Shown: in pieces, positions 1-32,559 of the stretch
How the letters are laid out: every line of letters starts with the position of its first letter
Position numbering within the stretch: the stretch's first letter is position 1
IMG/VR virus record: IMGVR_UViG_3300033146_005660
Coordinates: 1-57,058 of that record
DNA from: a virus
Taxonomy: Duplodnaviria > Caudoviricetes
DNA: 57,058 bases
Direction: 5' to 3' (one strand)
Made by a program: the position numbers and the translations under genes
Notes under the pieces: model-generated
Database searches by the model: none
The model's input: only the letters and a program-made list of their open reading frames with translations
What the model was told of the DNA's origin: nothing

Positions 1-267
1 GGCAACCTAATGCGTTAGCCGGTCTTGCACCGGTCCCTTCGCCATGTTGAGAGACAAGATTCTCTCCGGAGGCTCCATCACCTCGGCAGAAAAAGATGGG
101 TTCCGCGAAGAACTAAAACTAAGGGTTTCCCCGGGCCATAAATCCGGGGGGAGTTGGCCTCTCCCGAAAAAGGCTGCGTTATCTGCACGCGACGTCCTCT
201 GATGTCAAACGCAGCGTAATACCACGGGGAAGCACCGTGGCGCGCTCACCGGCGCGGACAATTGGTA

Positions 268-316
268 GTGCAACGCGACTCAGGGTCGCCATGCTGGTTC
301 AACTCCAGGTTGCACG
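268..316 (+). ncRNA. D-armless tRNA-like element (copy 1)
   Basis: Acceptor-like stem GTGCAAC/GTTGCAC, central hairpin GCGAC-TCAGG-GTCGC, T-arm CTGG-TTCAACT-CCAG. Confidence 0.5.
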
Positions 317-372
317 CAGCGTAATACCACGGGGAAGCACCGTGGCGCGCTCACCGGCGCGGACAATTGGTA

Positions 373-421
373 GTGCAACGCGACTCAGGGTCGCCATGCT
401 GGTTCAACTCCAGGTTGCACG
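373..421 (+). ncRNA. D-armless tRNA-like element (copy 2)
   Basis: Identical to 268-316, within the tandem duplication. Confidence 0.5.
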
Positions 422-524
422 ATAGAGGCCGAGCACATGGCAAGACGTTTGTTGTGTGCTCGTTGTCGCCCGAAAGGGCACGGTGGCCGTGACGTGTACG
501 GTCGTTCATCATACAGGAGGTGTG

Positions 525-725
525 ATGAGATATGAAATGGCTTCGCGGATGGTCGAAGCCATTTTCCAGGGCCGTCTCTGGACGGCGAAAGGTCAACGAG
601 ACCTTCGCCGCATCCTAGAGGCGGCCCGCCGGGAACGGCGGGAATTCGTAAATGAGTTCCCGCCGGATGAGCTCGACGAGCTCATCGAAGGCGCGGCGAG
701 CGCTCTCAGCGTTGTAAACGCTTAG
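525..725 (+). CDS. Hypothetical protein, 66 aa
   Basis: AGGAGG RBS just before ATG 525 (MRYEMASR...). Confidence 0.7.
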   Translation: MRYEMASRMVEAIFQGRLWTAKGQRDLRRILEAARRERREFVNEFPPDELDELIEGAASALSVVNA

Positions 726-835
726 AGCGCTCGCCGGGTTCATCCGGCCGTCACTCCCCGGTGACGTTAAACCATATGGGGCCCCGATCCGGGTGCAGGG
801 TTTGGCAACCCTGGATAGGATGGGCGTACAGCGCC

Positions 836-965
836 CTGAGCACACAGGTGGCATCGAGAGATGTCACCGGGGGTGTCTCAGATGAGGTGCGATAGCACCG
901 CGGGAGTCCCCCGCACGGTAGCCTATACCGGTCACGGAAACATAGGGAAGGCAATTAGATAGCCT
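836..965 (+). ncRNA. Structured repeat element, partial copy A
   Basis: Shares the GCATC-GAGA-(G/A)TGT hairpin, the GGTGC..GCACC stem and GCGGGAGTCCCCCGCACGG with copies at 2112-2337 and 3010-3252. Confidence 0.6.
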
Positions 966-1020
966 TCGCAGGGGCCCGAAGTGGAGCATCGACGGATGTA
1001 AAGCTCCGGGTTCCTGTAGG

Positions 1021-1066
1021 TTCCACTGTGGTCTTAACGGAGGTTCGATTCCTCCGGTGGAAATCA
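1021..1066 (+). ncRNA. tRNA minihelix-like element (acceptor stem + T-arm)
   Basis: TTCCACT/GGTGGAA stem, GGAGG-TTCGATT-CCTCC T-arm, 11-nt linker, 3' ATCA. Confidence 0.6.
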
Positions 1067-1399
1067 AAGGTGCCGCTGCTTCTGAGGCAGTGCTCCGGGT
1101 AGCACCCGGACGAGAGTCAGGCTCGCACCATGACCGTCGTACAGAGTGTTGCTGTACGTGCCTGACCAGTATCGAGGGCAACCGGGCCCCCCTGAGCGGC
1201 AAATCGCCGCTATCGAGCAAGTCCCCCGCGACACAGGGGACATCCGGTAGGGAGAGCACTCTCCCGACCTCGCTCTTAGGAGCGGGATGAGGCCATTGTG
1301 GCCGAAAACTCGACGACGGTGCCGTTGCTCCGCTGTCGTTGAGTCACTGGGCACCCCAAGCAGATAGGGGTGCTCGATGAGCAACAGAAAGGAGGCCTC

Positions 1400-1594
1400 A
1401 TGAAGGCTTCCAAGAATTTCCGTCGCCTGGACGGAGTGGGCTTCGCCGATCTCGGCGAAGCCCACTCCGTCCACGGGCGCGTCTCGGCGAAGGAGCCGAG
1501 ACGCGCCCGTGGGCATCAGCGGTCTCTCCCCTCGTGGGAGAGGCCGCTGTCGTCACTCGGTGACGCCCTCCGCGAGGCGGGCGTCACCAAGTAG
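1400..1594 (+). CDS. Hypothetical protein, 64 aa
   Basis: AAGGAGG RBS before ATG 1400 (MKASKNF...). Confidence 0.65.
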   Translation: MKASKNFRRLDGVGFADLGEAHSVHGRVSAKEPRRARGHQRSLPSWERPLSSLGDALREAGVTK

Positions 1595-1724
1595 CGACGG
1601 ACGAGCAGTAGCGCCATGACGCTGCTCGTCCACAACATCATGGCCCTTCAGTCGTTGGGGATCAACGACCTCCACCGTGCGGAGTAGAGCACGATAGAGC
1701 GCGAACGTGAGTTCGTGAACTCTT

Positions 1725-1790
1725 AACGTCGCTCACAGGGCGCACCGTTGTACGTTACAGGCGTACGAGGACGGGGCTCTGTGGGACCTT
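1725..1790 (+). repeat. 66-bp hairpin leader repeat, copy 1
   Basis: Identical to 2464-2529; folds CTCACAGGGC/GCTCTGTGGG with inner GTACG/CGTAC; lies just upstream of an RBS. Confidence 0.9.
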
Positions 1791-1807
1791 TACTGAAGGG
1801 AGGGCCT

Positions 1808-2095
1808 ATGGCCCGCCGCTGCGCGACGAAGCGCAGCTCCTTTCGTCGTCAGCTGGCGGCGAAACGCCTCAACGGTCTCATGGAAGACCGCGAGGCGGTC
1901 TACGCCGCCAGTAGCTGGCTGTCCCGCCAGGCGGTAATGTCGCCTGGCGGGCGCACCCGGTCGGCGGCGGAATCCGCAGCGTTCAGAACGGAGAACGCTG
2001 CGGAGTTCCGCCGCCTGAGGGTGCAGGCTGCAAAGCTGGAGAGGGAAATCTCAAACGCGCTGTTTGAGATCTCCCTCCTGGCCGGCAGCCGGTAG
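1808..2095 (+). CDS. Hypothetical basic protein, 95 aa
   Basis: GGGAGG RBS before ATG 1808 (MARRCATK...). Confidence 0.65.
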   Translation: MARRCATKRSSFRRQLAAKRLNGLMEDREAVYAASSWLSRQAVMSPGGRTRSAAESAAFRTENAAEFRRLRVQAAKLEREISNALFEISLLAGSR

Positions 2096-2111
2096 CCGGC
2101 AGACGGCGGGA

Positions 2112-2337
2112 CCCCTACGCCCGAGAGGGTGTAACTGCTGTGGATCGTAGATTCACAGCGGCGTAGGGGCGTATGGCACTAACGTAAGTGCTCGGCAAAC
2201 TACTGTCGTGAGCTGACAGGGAGCATCGAGAGGTGTTCCTGGGGCAGTGTAGAGTCAGGTGTTGTCACACCGCGGGAGTCCCCCGCACGGGCCATCCACC
2301 CGTCGACGAGAACTGGAGAGGGTCAACCAGATTGACC
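2112..2337 (+). ncRNA. Structured repeat element, copy B (candidate novel ncRNA)
   Basis: Colinear with 3010-3252; differences cluster as compensatory stem changes; GAGA/GTGA GNRA loops. Confidence 0.7.
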
Positions 2338-2339
2338 GG

Positions 2340-2376
2340 CGTCCCCGTACGAACTGTACGTGCGGGGACGTTTTTT
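2340..2376 (+). terminator. Intrinsic terminator-like hairpin + T6
   Basis: CGTCCCCGTAC...GTGCGGGGACG followed by TTTTTT. Confidence 0.75.
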
Positions 2377-2419
2377 CGCTGTGGTCTTGACGGAGGTTCG
2401 ATTCCTTCGGCGGAAATCA
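2374..2419 (+). ncRNA. tRNA minihelix-like element, copy 2
   Basis: TTTCGCT/GGCGGAA stem, GGAGG-TTCGATT-CCTTC T-arm, 3' ATCA; A-T to G-C covariation relative to 1021-1066. Confidence 0.6.
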
Positions 2420-2463
2420 TCCCGGCCGCAGTAGTGCGGCAACGGAGCTATCCGTGAATAGCA

Positions 2464-2529
2464 AACGTCGCTCACAGGGCGCACCGTTGTACGTTACAGG
2501 CGTACGAGGACGGGGCTCTGTGGGACCTT
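2464..2529 (+). repeat. 66-bp hairpin leader repeat, copy 2
   Basis: Identical to 1725-1790. Confidence 0.9.
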
Positions 2530-2567
2530 CGACGGCTCGCTCTCAAAGGAGCGGGCAGGAGACAAGC

Positions 2568-2990
2568 ATGACCATCAAGGTCATCGCCGAATCTCACGTC
2601 GACCACGGGATCGCCAAACCGGCGCTTCAGTGGCTCCTCGATCGGTTCGCCGATCGTGACGGTTTCTTCATTGAGACCGTGGAGCTACCGGAAGAGCTGG
2701 GGATGGTTCCTTGTGGGTTGCACGGACCGCTGATGGGTGATGAGCCCATCGCCGAGTCCGAAGTGACCTACAAGGCTCGTGGGGAGCGAGGGTACCCCTC
2801 TCGCCTAGCGGATCGTCCCGCGCGCCAAGTGCGCACGGTGACCGTCATCGCTGGGCCCGATGGGGACGAGCCCTGCGTGTTGTACACGGCCTTTGGTGGG
2901 CCGTTGACACCGCAGGAGCCCGGTGATCCGAGCTGTAAGGACTTGAAAGAGTCCCAGCAGTTCTGGTCAACCCACGCGCTTTCCGCGTAG
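2568..2990 (+). CDS. Hypothetical protein, 140 aa
   Basis: AGGAG RBS before ATG 2568 (MTIKVIAESHVDHG...); globular-looking sequence. Confidence 0.85.
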   Translation: MTIKVIAESHVDHGIAKPALQWLLDRFADRDGFFIETVELPEELGMVPCGLHGPLMGDEPIAESEVTYKARGERGYPSRLADRPARQVRTVTVIAGPDGDEPCVLYTAFGGPLTPQEPGDPSCKDLKESQQFWSTHALSA

Positions 2991-3009
2991 GTTCTCCGGA
3001 CCGACGGTT

Positions 3010-3252
3010 CCCTACGCCCGAGAGGGTGTAACTGCTTCGAGTCATAGACTCTAAGCGGCGTAGGGGCGTATAGCACTAACGTAAAGTGCTCGGCAGTCTG
3101 CTGTCGTGAGCTGACAGAGCTTACCGTGAGGTAAGTTCGGGGCAGTGCAGAGAAGAGGTGCAAAGGGTAGCCAATCCCGAAAGCACCGCAGGAGTCCCCT
3201 GCGCGGAGCAACTCTCCGGTCTTTGGAAAGAGTGAGGTTAACCAGATTGACC
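3010..3252 (+). ncRNA. Structured repeat element, copy C (candidate novel ncRNA)
   Basis: Colinear with 2112-2337, with compensatory changes. Confidence 0.7.
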
Positions 3253-3254
3253 GG

Positions 3255-3293
3255 CGCCCCCATGCGAACTGTACGCACGGGGGCGTTTTTTTT
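3255..3293 (+). terminator. Intrinsic terminator-like hairpin + T8
   Basis: CGCCCCC...GGGGGCG followed by TTTTTTTT; homologous to 2340-2376. Confidence 0.8.
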
Positions 3294-3379
3294 AATGTCC
3301 AGGAGTACCCGGGCCTGGAGCTCTGCTTGCAGAGAATAGTACGGGATTATGATAACCACCCACGGGAAGGAGAAACACC

Positions 3380-3433
3380 ATGGGTGACGTTGTCAAAGAG
3401 GCCGTTCGGATCATTATCCGGACGGGCTCGTAG
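3380..3433 (+). CDS. Possible 17-aa peptide MGDVVKEAVRIIIRTGS
   Basis: Strong GGAAGGAG RBS at canonical spacing; below the ORF-track cutoff. Confidence 0.4.
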   Translation: MGDVVKEAVRIIIRTGS

Positions 3434-3510
3434 AGACTTCCCGCGCCGAGCGGTCAACAATCGGCGCGGGTAGAGACTTCCCGCGCCGAGCGGTCAACAA
3501 TCGGCGCGGG
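3430..3510. repeat. Perfect tandem duplication of a hairpin, 40-bp period, 2 copies
   Basis: GTAGAGACTTCCCGCGCCGAGCGGTCAACAATCGGCGCGG twice; each copy has a CCCGCGCCGA/TCGGCGCGGG stem. Confidence 0.95.
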
Positions 3511-3515
3511 AACTC

Positions 3516-3584
3516 GTCTGCAGTCCAGGAGACCCTGAGCGTGCTGTTGCGCGAGCAGGTGAGGTTCGACACCTTATGCGGACA
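3516..3584 (+). ncRNA. Degenerate cloverleaf tRNA-like element
   Basis: GTCTGCA/TGCGGAC acceptor stem, CAGG/CCTG mini D-arm, CGTGC/GCGCG arm with non-canonical loop, TGAGG-TTCGACA-CCTTA T-arm; no CCA. Confidence 0.55.
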
Positions 3585-3675
3585 TTGTGTGCTCCACGGT
3601 GGAGTACATATTAACCAGGGTGCCCTTGGGTGCCCGTATTTGAGCCCGGATTAGATTCGGGCGAAGGAGGACATC

Positions 3676-5553
3676 ATGTCCAATCTTCAAACTTCCGCGC
3701 GCACCAACACCAACACCACCGCCAGCGCCAGCGCCGCGACGGCGGCGTTCCTGTTAGAGATGGCCGAGGAGTGGGGCTCGGCCAACCCGCGAGCGGTCGC
3801 GAGGTGGTCTAGGCCCCTCGCGGCCCCCGAGGTCGATCGGCCCAAGAGGCCGATGACAGAAAGGAGGTACGTCGCGGCCGTCCGCGACGTCCTCCGAAAT
3901 CTCCGCCGCGATGCGGAGTTCTCGGGGGACGACGCAAAGGCCGGTTATTACGACGGCCTGGCGGGCGAGGACGCCAGGCTGATCATCGGCCTGGGCCTCA
4001 ACCACATCCGGCCCCTTGACTGGGGTCGGATGGATCGGCGAGTCGACGGGGCGCTCGCCGAGTGGCATCGGCTGATGCCCCGATCTGGGGTTGTTGGGTC
4101 GACCAACAACCTCGACCCCGAGTTCTTATTTGCCCTCTACAGGGCGAAATGGACGCGGGGACTCCCGACGCCCGTCGGGGAGAAGCATTGGATTGACCTC
4201 GGGTCGGTCCAGTGGTTCCTCCAGAGGGCGTTCCGCCAACGCGACTGGCGGACCTTCCTCTGGATCTGGCGGAATCCAGAGGAGGCGGCGTTCGTCGGAG
4301 ACCGTTCCTACGGGAACCTCCGGCGAGTCGCCAAGGGCGGCCTCCGCATGAGGTGGGCAATCCGCTTCATGCGGAACCGCGCTCGGCACGAGCACGGTGG
4401 ATGCACCTCCTGGCTACAGAGCCAGGAGGTGCACTGGGAGGCCACCCTGGAGGAAATCCAGAGGGCCAGGGAGGCCCTCTGGGTCGAACTTGCTCGCCTT
4501 CTGCGTGGCGACGACTTCTGGGAGGTCGTCGCGCCAAAGAAGGCGACGTGGATCCGCTACCACCGGCGGATCCCAACCGGCGAACTCGGAGACTTCCTCG
4601 TCCGGGAGGTCCCCAAGTCGGAGATCAAGAACCTCGTGTGGAAGAAGTTCCACGAGGTGTTCCGGCATCTCCAAGACTTGGGGCTCCACCTGGAGGACGC
4701 CGCTAAGGGAGCCATTGCGCTCATCGGCGTCTTCGGTCCACGTTGGAAGACGTGGCTCCAGAGAATGGAGGCTCGGCACGTTGGCGCTCACAACGCCACG
4801 TACTGGCTCCCTGCGGCCACGCAGCCCGATCTGGGCGCGTGGTTGCTGCGTCACCTGGAGACCAACCAGGAGACGCTCCGGCTTGTGGTGAGCCGGTGGG
4901 AGGACCTCTCGGACGAGGACAGGAAACTCCCCACTGCGAAGATCGTCGCCGTGATCCGTGCGTCTGCGTACGGAAGCGAGGCGAGCCTCAACCGCGCTCT
5001 TGCCGAAGAGTGCGGCCGGTGGGGAGTCTCCAAGGAGAGGTTCTCGAAGTACGTTCGAAAGTACTCCGGGAGCCTCTCAGGCCTCAAGGAGGAGACCGTC
5101 CCTGGCTTTCCGCCGGTCAAGGACGGTGAGCTCACCGCATACCGTCTGGCGCGCGGTGATGTTCGGGGGCTTTTCCTCGGCGAGCACACGAACTGCTGTC
5201 AGTCCGTGGGAAACGTTGCCAAGTCATGCGCTTGGCACGGTGCCACGGGCCGCGACGGCGGGTTCGTGGTCGTCGAGCGCCAAGGCCAGATTGTGGCTCA
5301 GAGCTACGTCTGGCGCGACGGAGCTCACCTGGTGTTCGACTCGCTCGAATGCCTTGGTGAGCGGAAGAAGTTCCGCCCGATCATGCTGGCGGCGGCCAGG
5401 GAGATGGTCGGGCGACTCGGCGTCGGAGGCGTGTACGCCGGCGACGGATACGGCACGTCGGATGAACGGATTCGGAATCCGTTCATCCACAAGGCGATGT
5501 ACAGTGCGGACTCGGAGATGGTCCGCCTTGTCGCTGGAAAGGCGGTGAAATAA
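3676..5553 (+). CDS. 625-aa protein with a C-terminal PcfJ/GNAT-like domain
   Basis: AAGGAGG RBS; C-terminal LGEHTNCCQ..SCAWHG..GFVVV..IVAQSYVW..LVFDSLE pattern; family name is tentative. Confidence 0.6.
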   Translation: MSNLQTSARTNTNTTASASAATAAFLLEMAEEWGSANPRAVARWSRPLAAPEVDRPKRPMTERRYVAAVRDVLRNLRRDAEFSGDDAKAGYYDGLAGEDARLIIGLGLNHIRPLDWGRMDRRVDGALAEWHRLMPRSGVVGSTNNLDPEFLFALYRAKWTRGLPTPVGEKHWIDLGSVQWFLQRAFRQRDWRTFLWIWRNPEEAAFVGDRSYGNLRRVAKGGLRMRWAIRFMRNRARHEHGGCTSWLQSQEVHWEATLEEIQRAREALWVELARLLRGDDFWEVVAPKKATWIRYHRRIPTGELGDFLVREVPKSEIKNLVWKKFHEVFRHLQDLGLHLEDAAKGAIALIGVFGPRWKTWLQRMEARHVGAHNATYWLPAATQPDLGAWLLRHLETNQETLRLVVSRWEDLSDEDRKLPTAKIVAVIRASAYGSEASLNRALAEECGRWGVSKERFSKYVRKYSGSLSGLKEETVPGFPPVKDGELTAYRLARGDVRGLFLGEHTNCCQSVGNVAKSCAWHGATGRDGGFVVVERQGQIVAQSYVWRDGAHLVFDSLECLGERKKFRPIMLAAAREMVGRLGVGGVYAGDGYGTSDERIRNPFIHKAMYSADSEMVRLVAGKAVK

Positions 5554-10522: not shown

Positions 10523-10523
<1 letters not shown>

Positions 10524-10963
10524 TGGAGGTCATTATCCTCATGGGCATACGGGGTTCCGGGAAAACATCGTATGCCCAATCAAAGTTTCCCAAACACCTA
10601 AGGTGTTCCGCAGACGAGTGGTTCACTGACCGGCACGGAAAGTACAAGTTCCTCGAAGACCAGTTGCCCATCGCGAATGGGTACTGCTTCAGGAAATACT
10701 CACTGTCCGTGGGCCGAATGGATCTCGTTGTTGACAATCCAAACACCCGCCTATGGGAGGTTTCCCCGTACATCGCGTTGGCCGAGAGCTACTCGACCTT
10801 CGTGAAAGTCGTGTTCCTCGATGTCCCCCTGGAGCTTGCGCTGAAAAAAGCGGCGCATCTCCCAGAGCAGATCATCCGGGACCAACACGAACAAATACAA
10901 CAGTCCGTGGACGCATGGCCCGCGGAATTTCCGACACTCGAAATGGTGTCAACAGGAGAATGA
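10523..10963 (+). CDS. AAA_33/N4BP2-like polynucleotide kinase
   Basis: MGIRGSGKTS Walker A, SADEWF, LVVDNPN. Confidence 0.85.
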
Positions 10964-21605: not shown

Positions 21606-22298
21606 GCGATCCCTGCCAAGGTGCATCATGGACTTGACGGACTCGTTCTTGCGCGCCAGGACGTCCATGGCCCGACCAATGCGTGTTTTCGACCCGGACA
21701 GGACGGGGTCCGCAACGTGCTGTCGGACATACTTGAGCTGCTTGATCACCGGGGCGTGCGGCCCTAAGTAGCGCGCGCCCGCGCCGATCAGACCCCCCGT
21801 TATGGCACCGGCTGCGATGGCTTTGACGGGGATATTCTTCCGACGACCCTTACCTGACTTGTATCCCTGGTATCCCCCGGCGACGGCTCCCATGTACGGC
21901 GCAGCCTTCAGGGACCCGGAGACCGCCGTGTCAGCGGCAGACAGGGCTTTGAATGGATGCGTAGCCCGGAGGACAGGAACCTTCTCCATCGTGCTACGGA
22001 CGGTCTGACCATACTTCCTGCCCACATCGTACATGTAGACGGCACTCGGGCTGATGACGGTCCCTATGGCCGTGGAGGCAACGGGTCCGATGGATTTGCC
22101 GGTCACGCCATGGCGGAATCCCGTGCTCATCATTTCGTCACCGGCGCGCGCGAGGAACTCTTTGACCTTCGGCGGGGACAGTCTCGTATTGATGAGAATG
22201 TGTCCCACGGCATTCGCCGTGAGTTTTCCGCCCAAGAACGCGAGGACGCCGGCCGTCTTTTGAAGTTCGTTGGCAAATCCGTTGAGAAAGTTGTTCAT
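21567..22298 (-). CDS. Putative internal virion protein with the shared leader
   Basis: Starts MNNFLNGFANELQKTAG; basic, with Gly/Ala-rich helices. Confidence 0.75.
   Translation of the reverse strand: MNNFLNGFANELQKTAGVLAFLGGKLTANAVGHILINTRLSPPKVKEFLARAGDEMMSTGFRHGVTGKSIGPVASTAIGTVISPSAVYMYDVGRKYGQTVRSTMEKVPVLRATHPFKALSAADTAVSGSLKAAPYMGAVAGGYQGYKSGKGRRKNIPVKAIAAGAITGGLIGAGARYLGPHAPVIKQLKYVRQHVADPVLSGSKTRIGRAMDVLARKNESVKSMMHLGRDRIAKTQRGITPLV
21573..21605 (+). terminator. Hairpin + TTTAGCTAT terminator motif
   Basis: GAGGGGG-GTTAT-CCCCCTC-TGTG-TTTTAGCTAT. Confidence 0.65.
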
Positions 22299-23258
22299 CT
22301 AAAGCTTCCTTGTCCCCAGACCGTTGAGTTCCCCGAGCATGTCCTGGTAGAACTTTCTCTTCGATGGGGGTGCCTGCGGTTCCGTCCCAGGTTTTCCTAT
22401 TTTACTCGTCTTGGGCTTGGGCGGCGAGGTGATCCAGCTCGATCTGGCGCTCTTGACCTTGGATCCCACGGCCTTCTTGGACGCCGTCTTCTCCTGCTTC
22501 TTCTCAGCGTAGTCCTTGACGGCTTTGGCTATCATGGGTGCCGTGAGCGCTGGAATGGCGCTGACCACGTAGGTCATGAACGCCGGCAACAGCGTGGCCA
22601 TGGATTTGATCGCCGCACGGTTTCCCTCGATCGCCCTGATTGCCCTTGTTCCATGGATTGACGCCCTGGCCTCCTCGAGAACGTCCGGAATATGAGGAGC
22701 CACCGAAACGAGAGGGGCATACTTGCTCACCGTGTCGTTATCCGACATGGCCATCCCGATTCCCGTTCCCATAAAGGCCGGTCTCGCCACGTCCCTTGCT
22801 TTGACGAGCGTGGACAGCGTGGAGATTGGCGATGGAACGTTGTGTCCAACCTCGTGGGCAATTGTCGCCGGGTTCCCGGAGCTCAGGAATATCCTTGGCT
22901 TGACGCGTTCGGCGAACTCCGATGTTTCCTTTCCGAAGATTTTCGGGTGGCCTTTCAGCGTCTCAATGGTTTGCCTTGGTATCGTGAGCGACTCTCCGCC
23001 AACTACCGTACTGACATGCGGGACATTCAGATACTCCTCGTATTGAAGCTTTCTCGCGAGGGCCTCAAAATCAACGGAGCCAAGCCATCTCCCGATGTCT
23101 TTTTTATCGTAAGATCCATGAATCGAATCGATGATATTTGAGAGGGGATCTATGATTGCCCTGGAGGCCCCTGTCTCGCTGGTGGCAACCCCGGACAGCG
23201 CTCCGTACATTCTCGGAAGCTGAGACCTGTTGATGTCAGAATTCTCATTGTCGCCCAT
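22299..23258 (-). CDS. Zincin metallopeptidase-like protein (Zn_peptidase_2/YugP-like)
   Basis: AHEVGH (HExxH), LEEARAS third-ligand motif, AFMTYV. Confidence 0.7.
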   Translation of the reverse strand: MGDNENSDINRSQLPRMYGALSGVATSETGASRAIIDPLSNIIDSIHGSYDKKDIGRWLGSVDFEALARKLQYEEYLNVPHVSTVVGGESLTIPRQTIETLKGHPKIFGKETSEFAERVKPRIFLSSGNPATIAHEVGHNVPSPISTLSTLVKARDVARPAFMGTGIGMAMSDNDTVSKYAPLVSVAPHIPDVLEEARASIHGTRAIRAIEGNRAAIKSMATLLPAFMTYVVSAIPALTAPMIAKAVKDYAEKKQEKTASKKAVGSKVKSARSSWITSPPKPKTSKIGKPGTEPQAPPSKRKFYQDMLGELNGLGTRKL

Positions 23259-30884: not shown

Positions 30885-31390
30885 TAGATAGCGCCAAGAC
30901 TCGAACCGGACAGGCCGCCAATGGCAGCCCCTCTGAGAATGCGACCGATCAGAGCCTCAAGGTCGTTGTGGTCATTGTCGGACGTTCCCGCTGCGATAGA
31001 CCCGCCGGCAATTGCTCCCGTGATGGCACCAGGGGCAACAAACGTCGACAATGTGGGTCGTATCTTTGGATCGTTAAAGCTTACGAACTTTGCGGCCCCT
31101 CCCGAGATCCCCGACGCGATGGCACCGCCAATCCCGCTACCAAGAAGGGCGCCCTTGGCCGCTCCGCGAATAGGATTTTCCCCATCCTTGGCTGCTCCAA
31201 TCGTGCCACCAATGATCCCACCAATGGCTGCGCCGGGAATACCAGATTCGAGGGCAACCGCCGTGGCGTTGACAGCGTTTGGCACCCTCTCGAAGGTATT
31301 CCAGGTTTTTTCAAGGTGGTCCATTGTCTCGCCGAGAAGCCCGCTGACCTTCTCGAGCTCATCACTGAATCCGTTGAGAAAATGGTTCAT
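30884..31390 (-). CDS. Glycine-zipper protein with the shared leader
   Basis: Starts MNHFLNGFSDELEKVSG; repeated GxxxGxxxG helices. Confidence 0.75.
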   Translation of the reverse strand: MNHFLNGFSDELEKVSGLLGETMDHLEKTWNTFERVPNAVNATAVALESGIPGAAIGGIIGGTIGAAKDGENPIRGAAKGALLGSGIGGAIASGISGGAAKFVSFNDPKIRPTLSTFVAPGAITGAIAGGSIAAGTSDNDHNDLEALIGRILRGAAIGGLSGSSLGAI

Positions 31391-31391
31391 T
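31341..31391. repeat. 51-bp direct repeat encoding the shared leader (second copy 31868-31918)
   Basis: CCGCTGACCTTCTCGAGCTCATCACTGAATCCGTTGAGAAAATGGTTCATT is identical at both sites. Confidence 0.95.
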
Positions 31392-31917
31392 ATTCCCCTG
31401 CCCTTTTGGCGCCTCTGCGCCATGCCTTGCTGTTTTCTCTTCTGTAGTAACGTGGTAGATATTTTTCTTGCATTCTCTGCATATAATATGGTTCTTGGAA
31501 TATATCAGTTTCCTTTGAATAACCTCTCTTTAATCTCCCGTGAACATCGAATTTGCTGAACCTTCTGTAGCCTTCTTTTATATCTCGACGTCTGACATCT
31601 TTACTCCCAATTCTCCGCCTGTCAGCACGAAGTGGGCGATGCGCTTTCTCGGCATCATTCTTGATTCTCTTTCTGTGACTGCCAAACAGATGTTTTGTCT
31701 CATCTCGTGTTGCAGTGAACTCCTCGGACTTAATTTTGCCGGGCTTGGTGATGCGCCTCTTGATGACCCCAGGACGCCTCCATGCACGTTCCTCGGCGCG
31801 TTCAACGACCTTCTTTGCCTTGGACGCAACACCAGATCTACGAACAAGTTTTGCGACATCTTTGAGTCCGCTGACCTTCTCGAGCTCATCACTGAATCCG
31901 TTGAGAAAATGGTTCAT
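31390..31917 (-). CDS. Highly basic protein with the shared leader
   Basis: Starts MNHFLNGFSDELEKVSG; the rest is very R/K-rich. Confidence 0.75.
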   Translation of the reverse strand: MNHFLNGFSDELEKVSGLKDVAKLVRRSGVASKAKKVVERAEERAWRRPGVIKRRITKPGKIKSEEFTATRDETKHLFGSHRKRIKNDAEKAHRPLRADRRRIGSKDVRRRDIKEGYRRFSKFDVHGRLKRGYSKETDIFQEPYYMQRMQEKYLPRYYRRENSKAWRRGAKRAGE

Positions 31918-31921
31918 TGCC

Positions 31922-32533
31922 CTACCCTTTGTGCTTCTGCGCCCGACCAAGGAGATCCATGAGCTCCCGTTCGGACTTCATGAGCTTCTTGCTACCCGCA
32001 AGGCGGCCGGCGAGACCGCGGCTGCCAACACCCCTTCGTGCCATTTGAATCGCCAGGGGAACGCCAGCACCGCCGACGCCAACACCGGCGCCAGCGACAG
32101 CACCTGCGAGATGTCCAACTCCCGGCGTCATCGCTCCGATCATGCCACCTGAAATAGCGCCTTCGGCTCCCAGGACAGGAGCTGCAATTGCTGGATATTT
32201 GTTCCAACCAAGCAACCTGGAAATCGGGAACTTGCGTTTGTCGAGGCCCCGGAACTTCCCGGCCTTCGCGTCGGACACGATCTTCTTGACCGTCTCGCGG
32301 ACGGCCGCACGGCTTGTCCCTTGCTGGGCAGCAAGAAGCTTCTCGAGAACCCTTCGGTCACTGCGCTTCAGAGAGCCCTTGAGGAGCCTTCCGGAGAGAC
32401 CTCGGCTCTCAATGTACCTGGGGAGTCCTCCGAGCATCATGGGGTTGTACCTGGACGTCATTGCCCGTGAAATAGAATTGAACTTACCGATCTTCTCGAG
32501 CTCGTCAGAAAATCCGTTGAGGAAGTAGCTCAT
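31922..32533 (-). CDS. Basic, Gly-rich protein with the shared leader
   Basis: Starts MSYFLNGFSDELEKIG. Confidence 0.75.
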   Translation of the reverse strand: MSYFLNGFSDELEKIGKFNSISRAMTSRYNPMMLGGLPRYIESRGLSGRLLKGSLKRSDRRVLEKLLAAQQGTSRAAVRETVKKIVSDAKAGKFRGLDKRKFPISRLLGWNKYPAIAAPVLGAEGAISGGMIGAMTPGVGHLAGAVAGAGVGVGGAGVPLAIQMARRGVGSRGLAGRLAGSKKLMKSERELMDLLGRAQKHKG

Positions 32534-32559
32534 TGGTCTCTCTCTCTCTCGAGGGTTGT

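Follow-up and report, generated by a model that had tools for sequence, protein, structure and literature searches.

The left end of an uncultured phage record was found to carry two units in which unrelated genes are framed by the same repeated structures, an identical leader hairpin on the 5' side and a large folded element running into a terminator on the 3' side. The stretch analyzed, referred to here as the window, is the whole of the IMG/VR virus record IMGVR_UViG_3300033146_005660, a linear sequence of 57,058 bases with an estimated completeness of about 31%. On balance, we consider it somewhat probable that these repeats are the 5' and 3' RNA boundary modules of moron-like expression units located in a hyperplastic region, and that they double as handles for homologous recombination.

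Both units have one layout on the plus strand (Table 1), as a first-pass annotation of the same DNA had described: a 66-nucleotide (nt) leader hairpin, a ribosome-binding site with its open reading frame (ORF), a structured element, and a terminator. The repeats and their folds were confirmed, and the payload ORFs, of 95 and 140 amino acids (ORF95 and ORF140), proved to be unrelated as had been stated (BLASTP E 7.4). On the 5' side, positions 1714-1790 and 2453-2529 were 94% alike over 77 nt, and the last 66 nt of both (1725-1790 and 2464-2529), which make up the leader, were identical; between leader and start codon there follow 17 nt (ORF95) and 38 nt (ORF140) of unit-specific sequence with a Shine-Dalgarno motif. 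The leader folds as a long hairpin bearing an inner hairpin, in which 10 of the 37 pairs are G-U, with a folding energy of -36 kcal/mol on the plus strand in comparison to -24 kcal/mol on the minus strand, i.e., 12 kcal/mol better on the plus strand. A reading of the leader as a common N-terminal coding extension was rejected because a TAA at 1724-1726 closes the frame in unit 1, and it is countered as well by the ORF140 homologues, which start at the same methionine. A search for long-range pairing between leader and element gave nothing specific or conserved.

On the 3' side, the element occurs in three copies, called A (unit 1), B (unit 2), and C, the last of which follows a further ORF, ORF66. 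Copies A (2096-2376) and B (3010-3291) were 75% alike over 264 nt (E 2e-47), and A and C (837-918) were 77% alike (E 5e-11); the three copies have diverged to 74-88% likeness with their pairs retained, and a 23-nt core pattern occurred three times in the window in comparison to none in 100 shuffles. The element measures about 240-260 nt in A and B, where it runs into the intrinsic terminator, and its hairpins carry loops of the GNRA type (GAGA, GUGA, and GAUA). The folding z-scores were -4.5 for A, -4.7 for B, and -6.1 for C, the last within the fold of 737-1070.

To compare the copies pair by pair, A and B were aligned on their predicted fold, and 11 of the 80 predicted pairs were found to be changed on both sides and still paired. 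In the three-way core, which comprises 37 pairs in seven helices, 94.6% of the 111 cells were paired and 14 of the 37 pairs were changed on both sides. None of 500 shuffles reached these values, and sliding the partners by 1-3 columns left 0-3 such pairs; these controls are indicative and not conclusive, as there are only three sequences and the structure was derived from the same three. A covariance model built from the three cores found exactly three copies in a scan of the window, at 142-163 bits, with the next match at 9.3 bits. Copy C matched model positions 1-151 of 151 at 153 bits, the other two copies scoring 163 and 142 bits; the annotation was thus right in that the third ORF (525-725) is followed by an element copy and mistaken in calling that copy partial, since its core is full, though its 5' domain is different and it has no terminator. 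The compensatory changes in the element pairs point to long-term selection on the fold, and the 3' element is a selected RNA fold with good covariation support. In addition, A folded at -132 kcal/mol on the plus strand in comparison to -109 kcal/mol on the minus strand, B and C also folded better on the plus strand, and G-U pairs were many. The better folding of the plus strand for the leader and for A, B, and C, together with the many G-U pairs, argues for an RNA of the plus strand and not for a DNA cruciform.

The homology between A and B starts 7 nt past the ORF95 stop in A and 9 nt past the ORF140 stop in B, whereas the distance from the element to the next start codon varies (192, 83 (or 379), and 422 nt). 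This tight spacing to the upstream stop in comparison to the variable spacing to the next start suggests that the element, to judge from where it sits, is of the 3' untranslated region (UTR) type. Both terminators are predicted from sequence and fold. No match at gathering score was obtained with Rfam 15 over the whole window, and of 26 matches at E <= 10 in positions 1-4200, none reached the gathering score of its family. The element is therefore a candidate new RNA motif absent from Rfam 15; the literature consulted on tRNA-like minihelices and intergenic repeats, which was not aimed at the element, gave only the papers on promoter early stem-loops (PeSLs) as relevant. Two coding explanations were tried and rejected: read-through of the stop codon into the element, since the conserved sequence lies in different frames in A and B, and recoding of TAG, which is merely the commonest stop (28 of 59 crude gene calls).

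To see how the region varies among related strains, we used four public runs (X1 to X4, from three studies) that carry parts of the stretch at small shares, X1 and X2 being one hydrothermal-vent sample and X3 sediment. Contigs were compared at a likeness of at least 80%; the evidence on variants consists of short contigs, and uncovered parts were not counted as evidence except where a contig joins across. Records 1 and 2 of X1 and record 8 of X2 span the repeat junctions at 94-99.6% identity. The bridging contigs of X1 and X2 run over 1909-2376, from ORF95 into A (15 differences, 4 gaps), over 2347-2935, from A through the minihelix and leader 2 into ORF140 (32 differences), and over 2252-2505, from A to leader 2 (1 difference). 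Since contigs of other runs bridge the repeat junctions, the repeats are not a misassembly, a doubt that the first-pass annotation had itself raised. The strain in X1 and X2, which is about 95% identical to the window, kept the same ORF order where it covers the junctions.

Other arrangements were seen in the same runs. A contig of X4 joins 2368 to 3284, skipping 915 nt, which is the spacing of the repeats, and is without minihelix 2, leader 2, ORF140, and element B; the X4 contigs on either side are identical to the window, and depth was zero in three bins covering 2404-3204. Record 18 of X3 resembles B over 3139-3320; the 16 nt before this part agree with the GNRA hairpin of A at 15 of 16 positions (aligned by eye), and the record reads as an A/B mosaic, as expected from copy exchange at an internal point. 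Furthermore, a contig of X1 joins 1316 to 1558, with the start and most of ORF64 gone. With three structural variants in 3.6 kb among close relatives, the left region is hyperplastic, and the different places of the X4 and X3 crossovers argue for general homologous or microhomology recombination and not for a fixed site. The suggestion that the conserved flanks serve as recombination handles was supported by the putative in-register loss of a unit in X4 and by the A/B mosaic in X3. The annotation would have counted the same ORFs in the same order in all relatives against its cassettes; the X1/X2 strain keeps the order, and the two recombinants (X4, which is without one unit, and the X3 mosaic) are exceptions. 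Its swappable payloads did not materialize: no different ORF was seen between the same flanks, and the strain at about 95% identity retains the order. No circle junction was found in the X1-X4 contigs, and contigs cannot exclude one. Further to the right, a contig of X1 leads from 6890 back to 6357 through 1,139 other letters, a rearrangement or insertion in a related strain.

Table 1. Positions of the repeated modules, ORFs, and tRNA-like elements at the left end of the window
Feature	Positions	Strand	Remarks
Tandem 105-nt units (two, 100% identical)	209..418	+	Each ends with tRNA-like acceptor stem, anticodon-like hairpin, and T-arm; upstream of first unit
ORF66	525..725	+	Shine-Dalgarno; nearly all consecutive long hairpins, fold z -12.9
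Element copy C	818..978	+	Full core; different 5' domain; no intrinsic terminator; follows ORF66; covariance model and covariation with A and B
Minihelix 1	1021..1066	+	Acceptor-like stem, 12-nt connector, T-arm with TTCGATT loop, then A-TCA
ORF64	1400..1594	+	Shine-Dalgarno; array of perfect hairpins (21- and 18-bp stems), fold z -12.0
Leader copy 1	1725..1790	+	66-nt hairpin, 17 nt upstream of ORF95 start codon
ORF95	1808..2095	+	Payload of unit 1; orphan; hairpin-saturated, fold z -12.7
Element copy A	2096..2337	+	Multi-hairpin RNA with GNRA-type loops; follows ORF95
Terminator, unit 1 (predicted)	2338..2376	+	14-pair stem, 9 G-C, then T6
Minihelix 2	2374..2419	+	89% alike to minihelix 1; 5' strand overlaps T-run of terminator
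Leader copy 2	2464..2529	+	Identical to copy 1; 38 nt upstream of ORF140 start codon
ORF140	2568..2990	+	Payload of unit 2; widespread conserved family with no assigned function
Element copy B	2991..3252	+	18-nt insertion in one hairpin; follows ORF140
Terminator, unit 2 (predicted)	3253..3293	+	13-pair stem, then T8; two stem pairs differ from A on both sides
Cloverleaf-like tRNA-like element	3516..3586	+	90 nt upstream of ORF625; fold, T-loop-like motif at 3563

The region also contains several tRNA-like elements. The minihelices come after the first and second element copies in genome order, and the acceptor stem of minihelix 2 is kept in comparison to that of copy 1 through A-U to G-C and C-G to U-G changes. 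The annotation had placed the same minihelix after copies A and B, which is correct if the copies are lettered in genome order and incorrect for the copy at 2991-3293, which is followed by none. The window has five T-loop-like motifs; all are on the plus strand within 296-3573, and each precedes an ORF or the leader of an ORF by 44 to about 330 nt. No tRNA gene was called by ARAGORN in the window, relaxed settings gave only low-threshold or scattered calls, and there was no Rfam tRNA match. The tandem units at 209-418 have the T-arm region GGTTCAACTCC, with the T-loop-like motif at 296 and 401, and ARAGORN does not accept them as tRNA (fold from 262-320). The element at 3516-3586, about 70 nt long, has a 7-bp acceptor stem, three arms, and the T-loop-like GGTTCGACACC, and was called by ARAGORN only at the relaxed 80% threshold, with a 4-nt "anticodon". 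Two smaller likenesses were noted around these elements. A CTGTGG..CTT motif is common to the 3' end of the leader (1776-1790) and the 5' parts of the minihelices (1024-1038 and 2377-2391), which may be chance. A 16-nt motif, 88% alike between 417-432 (directly after the tandem units) and 1689-1704 (20 nt upstream of leader 1), may be a processing or promoter signal in common.

The two payloads differ greatly in their distribution among known proteins. For ORF140, 589 of 642 candidates were homologues at E <= 0.001, the best non-self match being 70% identical and most members being 136-144 amino acids long; judged by sequence, ORF140 is a genuine gene. Its AlphaFold2 model reached a pLDDT of 94, and the searches gave no Pfam or NCBIfam family, one weak PHROG match, no PDB sequence match, and none by Foldseek at E <= 0.001. 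ORF140 is probably a metal-dependent enzyme with a new-looking predicted fold, common in phage and metagenome contigs. Residues S9, H10, D12, H13, C49, C103, E117, D120, and H136 are invariant in 24 aligned members of the family. A homologue that is 52% identical, on a distant phage contig, sits within a tight run of overlapping genes with none of the flanks described here. ORF95, in comparison, matched only itself among 5.8 billion clustered proteins and 1.84 billion representative proteins, and ORF66 gave no Pfam family and one weak PHROG match (E 0.047).

ORF66, ORF64, and ORF95 each have a good ribosome-binding site and lie in regions of hairpins (505-765, 1380-1700, and 1790-2100) with stems up to 21 bp and z-scores far more extreme than those of the 3' elements. 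The guanine-plus-cytosine (GC) contents at the three codon positions were 0.70/0.43/0.66 for ORF66, where the third position (GC3) is below the first, and 0.62/0.57/0.81 for ORF95; ORF95 and ORF64 (GC3 0.82) both have coding-like GC3. The three ORFs are possibly structured RNAs whose frames are open by chance; alternatively, they may be translated genes on whose RNA structure strong selection acts. In ORF95 of the strain at about 95-96% identity, one stem pair among the listed differences was changed on both sides (1978/1999), and three codon-altering changes fell in the hairpin loop 2058-2060; some other listed stem changes have no listed partner, and 249 further differences are outside those listed. 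The next gene to the right, ORF625 (3676-5553), is clearly coding and also bears perfect hairpins of 10-14 bp, e.g., at 4402-4433 (14-bp stem) and 5460-5488 (13-bp stem), so that hairpins do not exclude coding here.

Some further observations concern ORF625 and the sequence before it. Its close homologues are on short metagenome contigs, at 92% (a 4.4-kb NCBI contig) and 82% (an 8.9-kb JGI contig), which would be the likeliest sites of alternative payloads, and its C-terminal part of about 250 amino acids is 31-38% identical to ORFs of metagenome-assembled genomes (MAGs) of cyanobacteria and Obscuribacterales. Two weak leads are a PcfJ-like cluster at 0.80 and a GNAT-like fold over residues of about 480-623 (TM 0.56-0.60 by target). 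A low-complexity stretch at 3700-3740 within ORF625 draws unrelated contigs and produces a spike in depth. At 3430-3509, two identical 40-nt tandem repeats with a 10-bp hairpin each (fold of 3430-3520, z -6.6) follow closely on an ORF of 18 codons that has a promoter-like site at 3390-3417.

The searches for relatives of the units and for enzymes that might move them were largely negative. No tyrosine or serine recombinase was found in the 57-kb record, which is a fragment (PF00589, 0 matches; control, 14 of 14 genomes), in agreement with the annotation's remark that none is visible. The attC motifs sought were an inverse core RYYYAAC and a core GTTRRRY, 45-150 nt apart; no such pair exists at 401-3700, where the two motifs occur only singly (2 and 1 sites) and never at a unit edge. 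A dedicated exchange system was thus not supported. Comparison of 1-4200 with GenBank phages by blastn gave nothing, and in IMG/VR, patterns written exactly or with degeneracy for the core of the element (also in gapped form), its 5' domain, the leader, and the minihelix gave 0 or 3 chance matches with no wider similarity, so that the related phage contigs in which the ORFs between the flanks could have been tabulated were not found in either collection. A metagenome scan with the core pattern gave one chance match, on an apparently unrelated contig with ordinary long ORFs. Neither ORF625 nor the terminase had relatives in IMG/VR, and when genome contigs were scanned with ORF625, the matches were distant, confined to its C-terminal part, and in cyanobacterial MAGs whose flanks are dissimilar. 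The covariance model (R1) found nothing in Salmonella phage Arash, Vibrio phage D69, and the record behind L004, an empty result that shows little.

The reading that we favor would work as follows. The first 3.6 kb or so would be an accessory, hyperplastic region made of small expression units, each with boundaries of its own and all drawing on one set of RNA modules, in the order minihelix, 66-nt leader hairpin, own ribosome-binding site and ORF, folded 3' domain of 240-260 nt, and strong terminator on the plus strand. The terminator would set the 3' end of the message, and the folded 3' domain may shield that end from 3' exonucleases or bind a factor. The minihelix would be a processing mark on read-through transcripts, a plausible substrate for RNase P and 3' tRNA processing by which neighboring messages are separated, and the leader hairpin, at or near the new 5' end, may cap and stabilize the message or serve as the binding site of a regulator. 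That minihelices and leader act in RNA processing is plausible. As the modules are direct repeats, recombination between copies can remove or add whole units; as a side effect, and one that matters for evolution, homologous or microhomology recombination would delete, duplicate, or shuffle them.

Several results weigh against this reading. The independent transcription of each unit is assumed; a sigma-70 consensus scan of 1600-1810 and 2377-2570 recognized no promoter site in or near the leader. The leaders are 100% identical in comparison to 75-88% likeness for the 3' elements, a disparity that could reflect recent conversion or strict constraint. The sample is small, as the full layout is present in only two units and the element family was found in no other accessible phage. 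The X4 junction with its missing unit is one 151-nt contig at depth 2, and the crossover is placed among the 8 letters that the terminators have in common at their ends and not in the longest identical runs (27 nt), a place where RecA-type recombination would not usually be expected and which would fit a site-specific or replication-slippage event just as well. In addition, the X1-X4 contigs contain no relative with a different ORF between the same flanks.

Among the alternatives, we regard it as unlikely, though worth serious attention, that the element is a family of free-standing non-coding RNA genes acting in trans (a protein sponge, anti-defense decoy, or ribozyme) that has been multiplied locally, the leader being an unrelated duplicated regulatory site. 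A compact multi-helical fold with GNRA-type loops and strong covariation, a terminator of its own, and copies that have drifted to 74-88% with their pairs kept, as for a selected RNA, would all suit such a gene, as would a region crowded with other structured and tRNA-like RNAs and the lack of a match to any known family. However, all three copies stand directly after a stop codon (at 7-9 nt for A and B), no promoter-like site precedes any of them, copy C is without a terminator, and leader and element co-occur in the same two units. Less probable still is a historical accident, in which one unit was duplicated and its ORF then replaced, the repetition having no function, or an assembly artefact. 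That there are only two full units, with leaders identical as after a recent duplication or conversion, is what such a history would leave; yet the compensatory changes show long-term selection on the element pairs, a third and older copy is present, and the homology ends within 7-9 nt of the stops and 17-38 nt before the starts, so clean a replacement that it would need explaining. The artefact is excluded by the contigs of other runs that bridge all repeat junctions.

It also appears very unlikely that element and terminator form a 5' attenuator or riboswitch for the downstream gene and not the tail of the upstream one. For the 5' domain of A and B, two exclusive pairings can be drawn, a local hairpin with a GAGA loop or a distal 10-bp helix, and a strong terminator that ends a long folded RNA is the usual layout of a riboswitch; the distances to the next start (192, 83 (or 379), and 422 nt) in comparison to the tight spacing from the upstream stop, the missing terminator of copy C, the absence of any evident antiterminator pairing, and the lack of an Rfam riboswitch match all tell against it. 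We give just as little credence to true RNA-defined cassettes, whose edges are transcript edges (from U-tract end to U-tract end) and which have a minihelix and the invariant leader on the 5' side and the folded RNA on the 3' side; they would be moved whole between phage genomes by a dedicated site-specific or RNA-copy mechanism, with the element of about 250 nt as a new functional RNA class, both 3' protective domain and recognition handle. Slimmest of all is the chance of a dedicated, integron-like site-specific or RNA-mediated cassette system whose units are moved at the terminator end by an enzyme encoded outside the fragment. The X4 junction lies in register at the exact unit edge, within the final 8 shared terminator letters, the missing segment runs from one terminator end to the next and is one unit, and with only about 31% of the expected genome in the record the enzyme could be elsewhere. 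Against these points stand the 57 kb without a tyrosine or serine recombinase, the absence of an inverse-core/core pair at 401-3700, the X3 crossover, which is inside the element and not at a unit edge, the leader hairpin, whose need for G-U pairs keeps it from forming in DNA or in the opposite strand, and the X1-X4 contigs, in which neither alternative payloads nor circle junctions were seen.

The record itself is distant from studied phages. By terminase and portal, its nearest isolates are Salmonella phage Arash (181 kb) and Vibrio phages D69, D148, and D181 (187 kb), at only about 30% identity, which suggests that it is probably a piece of a phage of about 180 kb from an unstudied lineage; profile searches gave no family for most genes of the window. 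Its first 6.4 kb or so are GC-rich (0.60-0.65 in comparison to about 0.54 elsewhere in the window), the unit region having a GC content of 0.61 in comparison to 0.55 elsewhere. The same end is rich in structure: 22 of the 32 perfect hairpins with stems of at least 9 bp are within the first 6.3 kb, and the mean GC-corrected folding z-score was -1.4 for windows starting before 3,500 in comparison to +0.1 for those starting at or after 3,700. Elsewhere in the record, an ORF at 10523-10960 had a PHROG ATPase family as a match at E 5e-18 and a polynucleotide kinase family as a weak one at E 3e-4, which is of possible interest with many tRNA-like RNAs nearby. A 54-nt segment occurs four times at 63-98% likeness (22246-22299, 31338-31391, 31865-31918, and 32481-32534), at the 5' ends of adjacent minus-strand genes, which suggests a small family of paralogs that retain the N-terminus.

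Three known systems resemble the units in part. Integron cassettes form same-direction arrays in which each unrelated ORF is joined to a folded, imperfectly conserved attC site, with an IntI-type tyrosine recombinase adjacent. The units here are similar in that an unrelated ORF is followed by a folded element in the same direction and that a unit appears to be present or absent between strains (one unit, in X4, with no replaced payload seen), but two defining tests failed, no integrase being found in the record and no core/inverse-core pair being present; in addition, the element is an RNA-type fold four times the typical attC length, with a terminator, and the X3 crossover falls inside it. 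RNA punctuation is known from the RNase III sites between T7 early genes, from tRNAs in mitochondrial transcripts, and from the tRNA-like 3'-end signal of MALAT1, mascRNA. Similarly, the hairpins and tRNA-like structures between the ORFs could be cut by host RNases into separate stable mRNAs with structured ends, although there is no homology, the minihelices have no anticodon arm and end in TCA and not CCA, and cleavage is a proposal by analogy here. The morons of lambdoid and other phages are self-contained one-gene units with their own start signals and a factor-independent terminator, often with a distinct base composition. The units here are likewise one-gene units between other genes with a deviating GC content (0.61 in comparison to 0.55), but they have identical flanks around different genes and no identified promoter; to our knowledge, morons have not been described with identical flanks around different genes.

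Two families of phage repeats come closer in position or behavior. In Cluster K mycobacteriophages, the start-associated sequence (SAS, 13 bp) and its extended form (ESAS, two 17-bp inverted repeats) stand close before the start codons of unrelated genes, twelve or more of them per genome, and are presumed to act in expression (Pope et al. 2011, PMC3203893). The leader is similar to SAS and ESAS only in position, as it is a 66-nt hairpin at two genes with a paired 3' element, which SAS and ESAS in that account do not have. The PeSLs of T4-type phages are motifs of about 100 bp that unite a sigma-70 promoter and a simple stem-loop in one intergenic motif, at about 50 per genome; they flank ORFans in hyperplastic regions, and recombination between copies gives rise to indels and mini-circles (Arbiol et al. 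2010, PMC2839356; Comeau et al. 2014, PMC4122927).

Similar to the PeSLs so described, the modules found here are repeated regulatory motifs beside small, often orphan genes in the hyperplastic region of a large phage. Such a repeat contains a stem-loop terminator (here predicted, at 2338-2376 and 3253-3293) and ends at the ribosome-binding site of the next gene, and the variable region holds ORFans (here the orphan ORF95, with three structural differences within 3.6 kb). Recombination of neighboring PeSL copies removes or inserts genes, and the X4 junction mirrors the loss of ORFan192 from RB49 to phi1. Key differences from the published description are that the 5' module (a 66-nt hairpin) and the 3' module (a covarying RNA of about 250 nt with a terminator) are separate and far larger here, that tRNA-like minihelices are added, and that there is no promoter consensus and there are only 2-3 copies.

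In large phages, the genes that change fastest are gathered in hyperplastic regions, and it is only partly understood how a newcomer gene can be inserted there while expression stays intact. The present analysis suggests the logic of PeSLs in an unrelated, uncultured phage of the 180-kb class, built from much larger modules at the RNA level. As public metagenomes contain the unit in some cases and lack it in others, they provide a natural test bed for how regulatory RNA repeats double as recombination handles, and the leader and 3' element could be portable parts for expression or stability if their function is confirmed. By analogy with these systems, the units would work like PeSLs and morons, but they are not members of the PeSL family.

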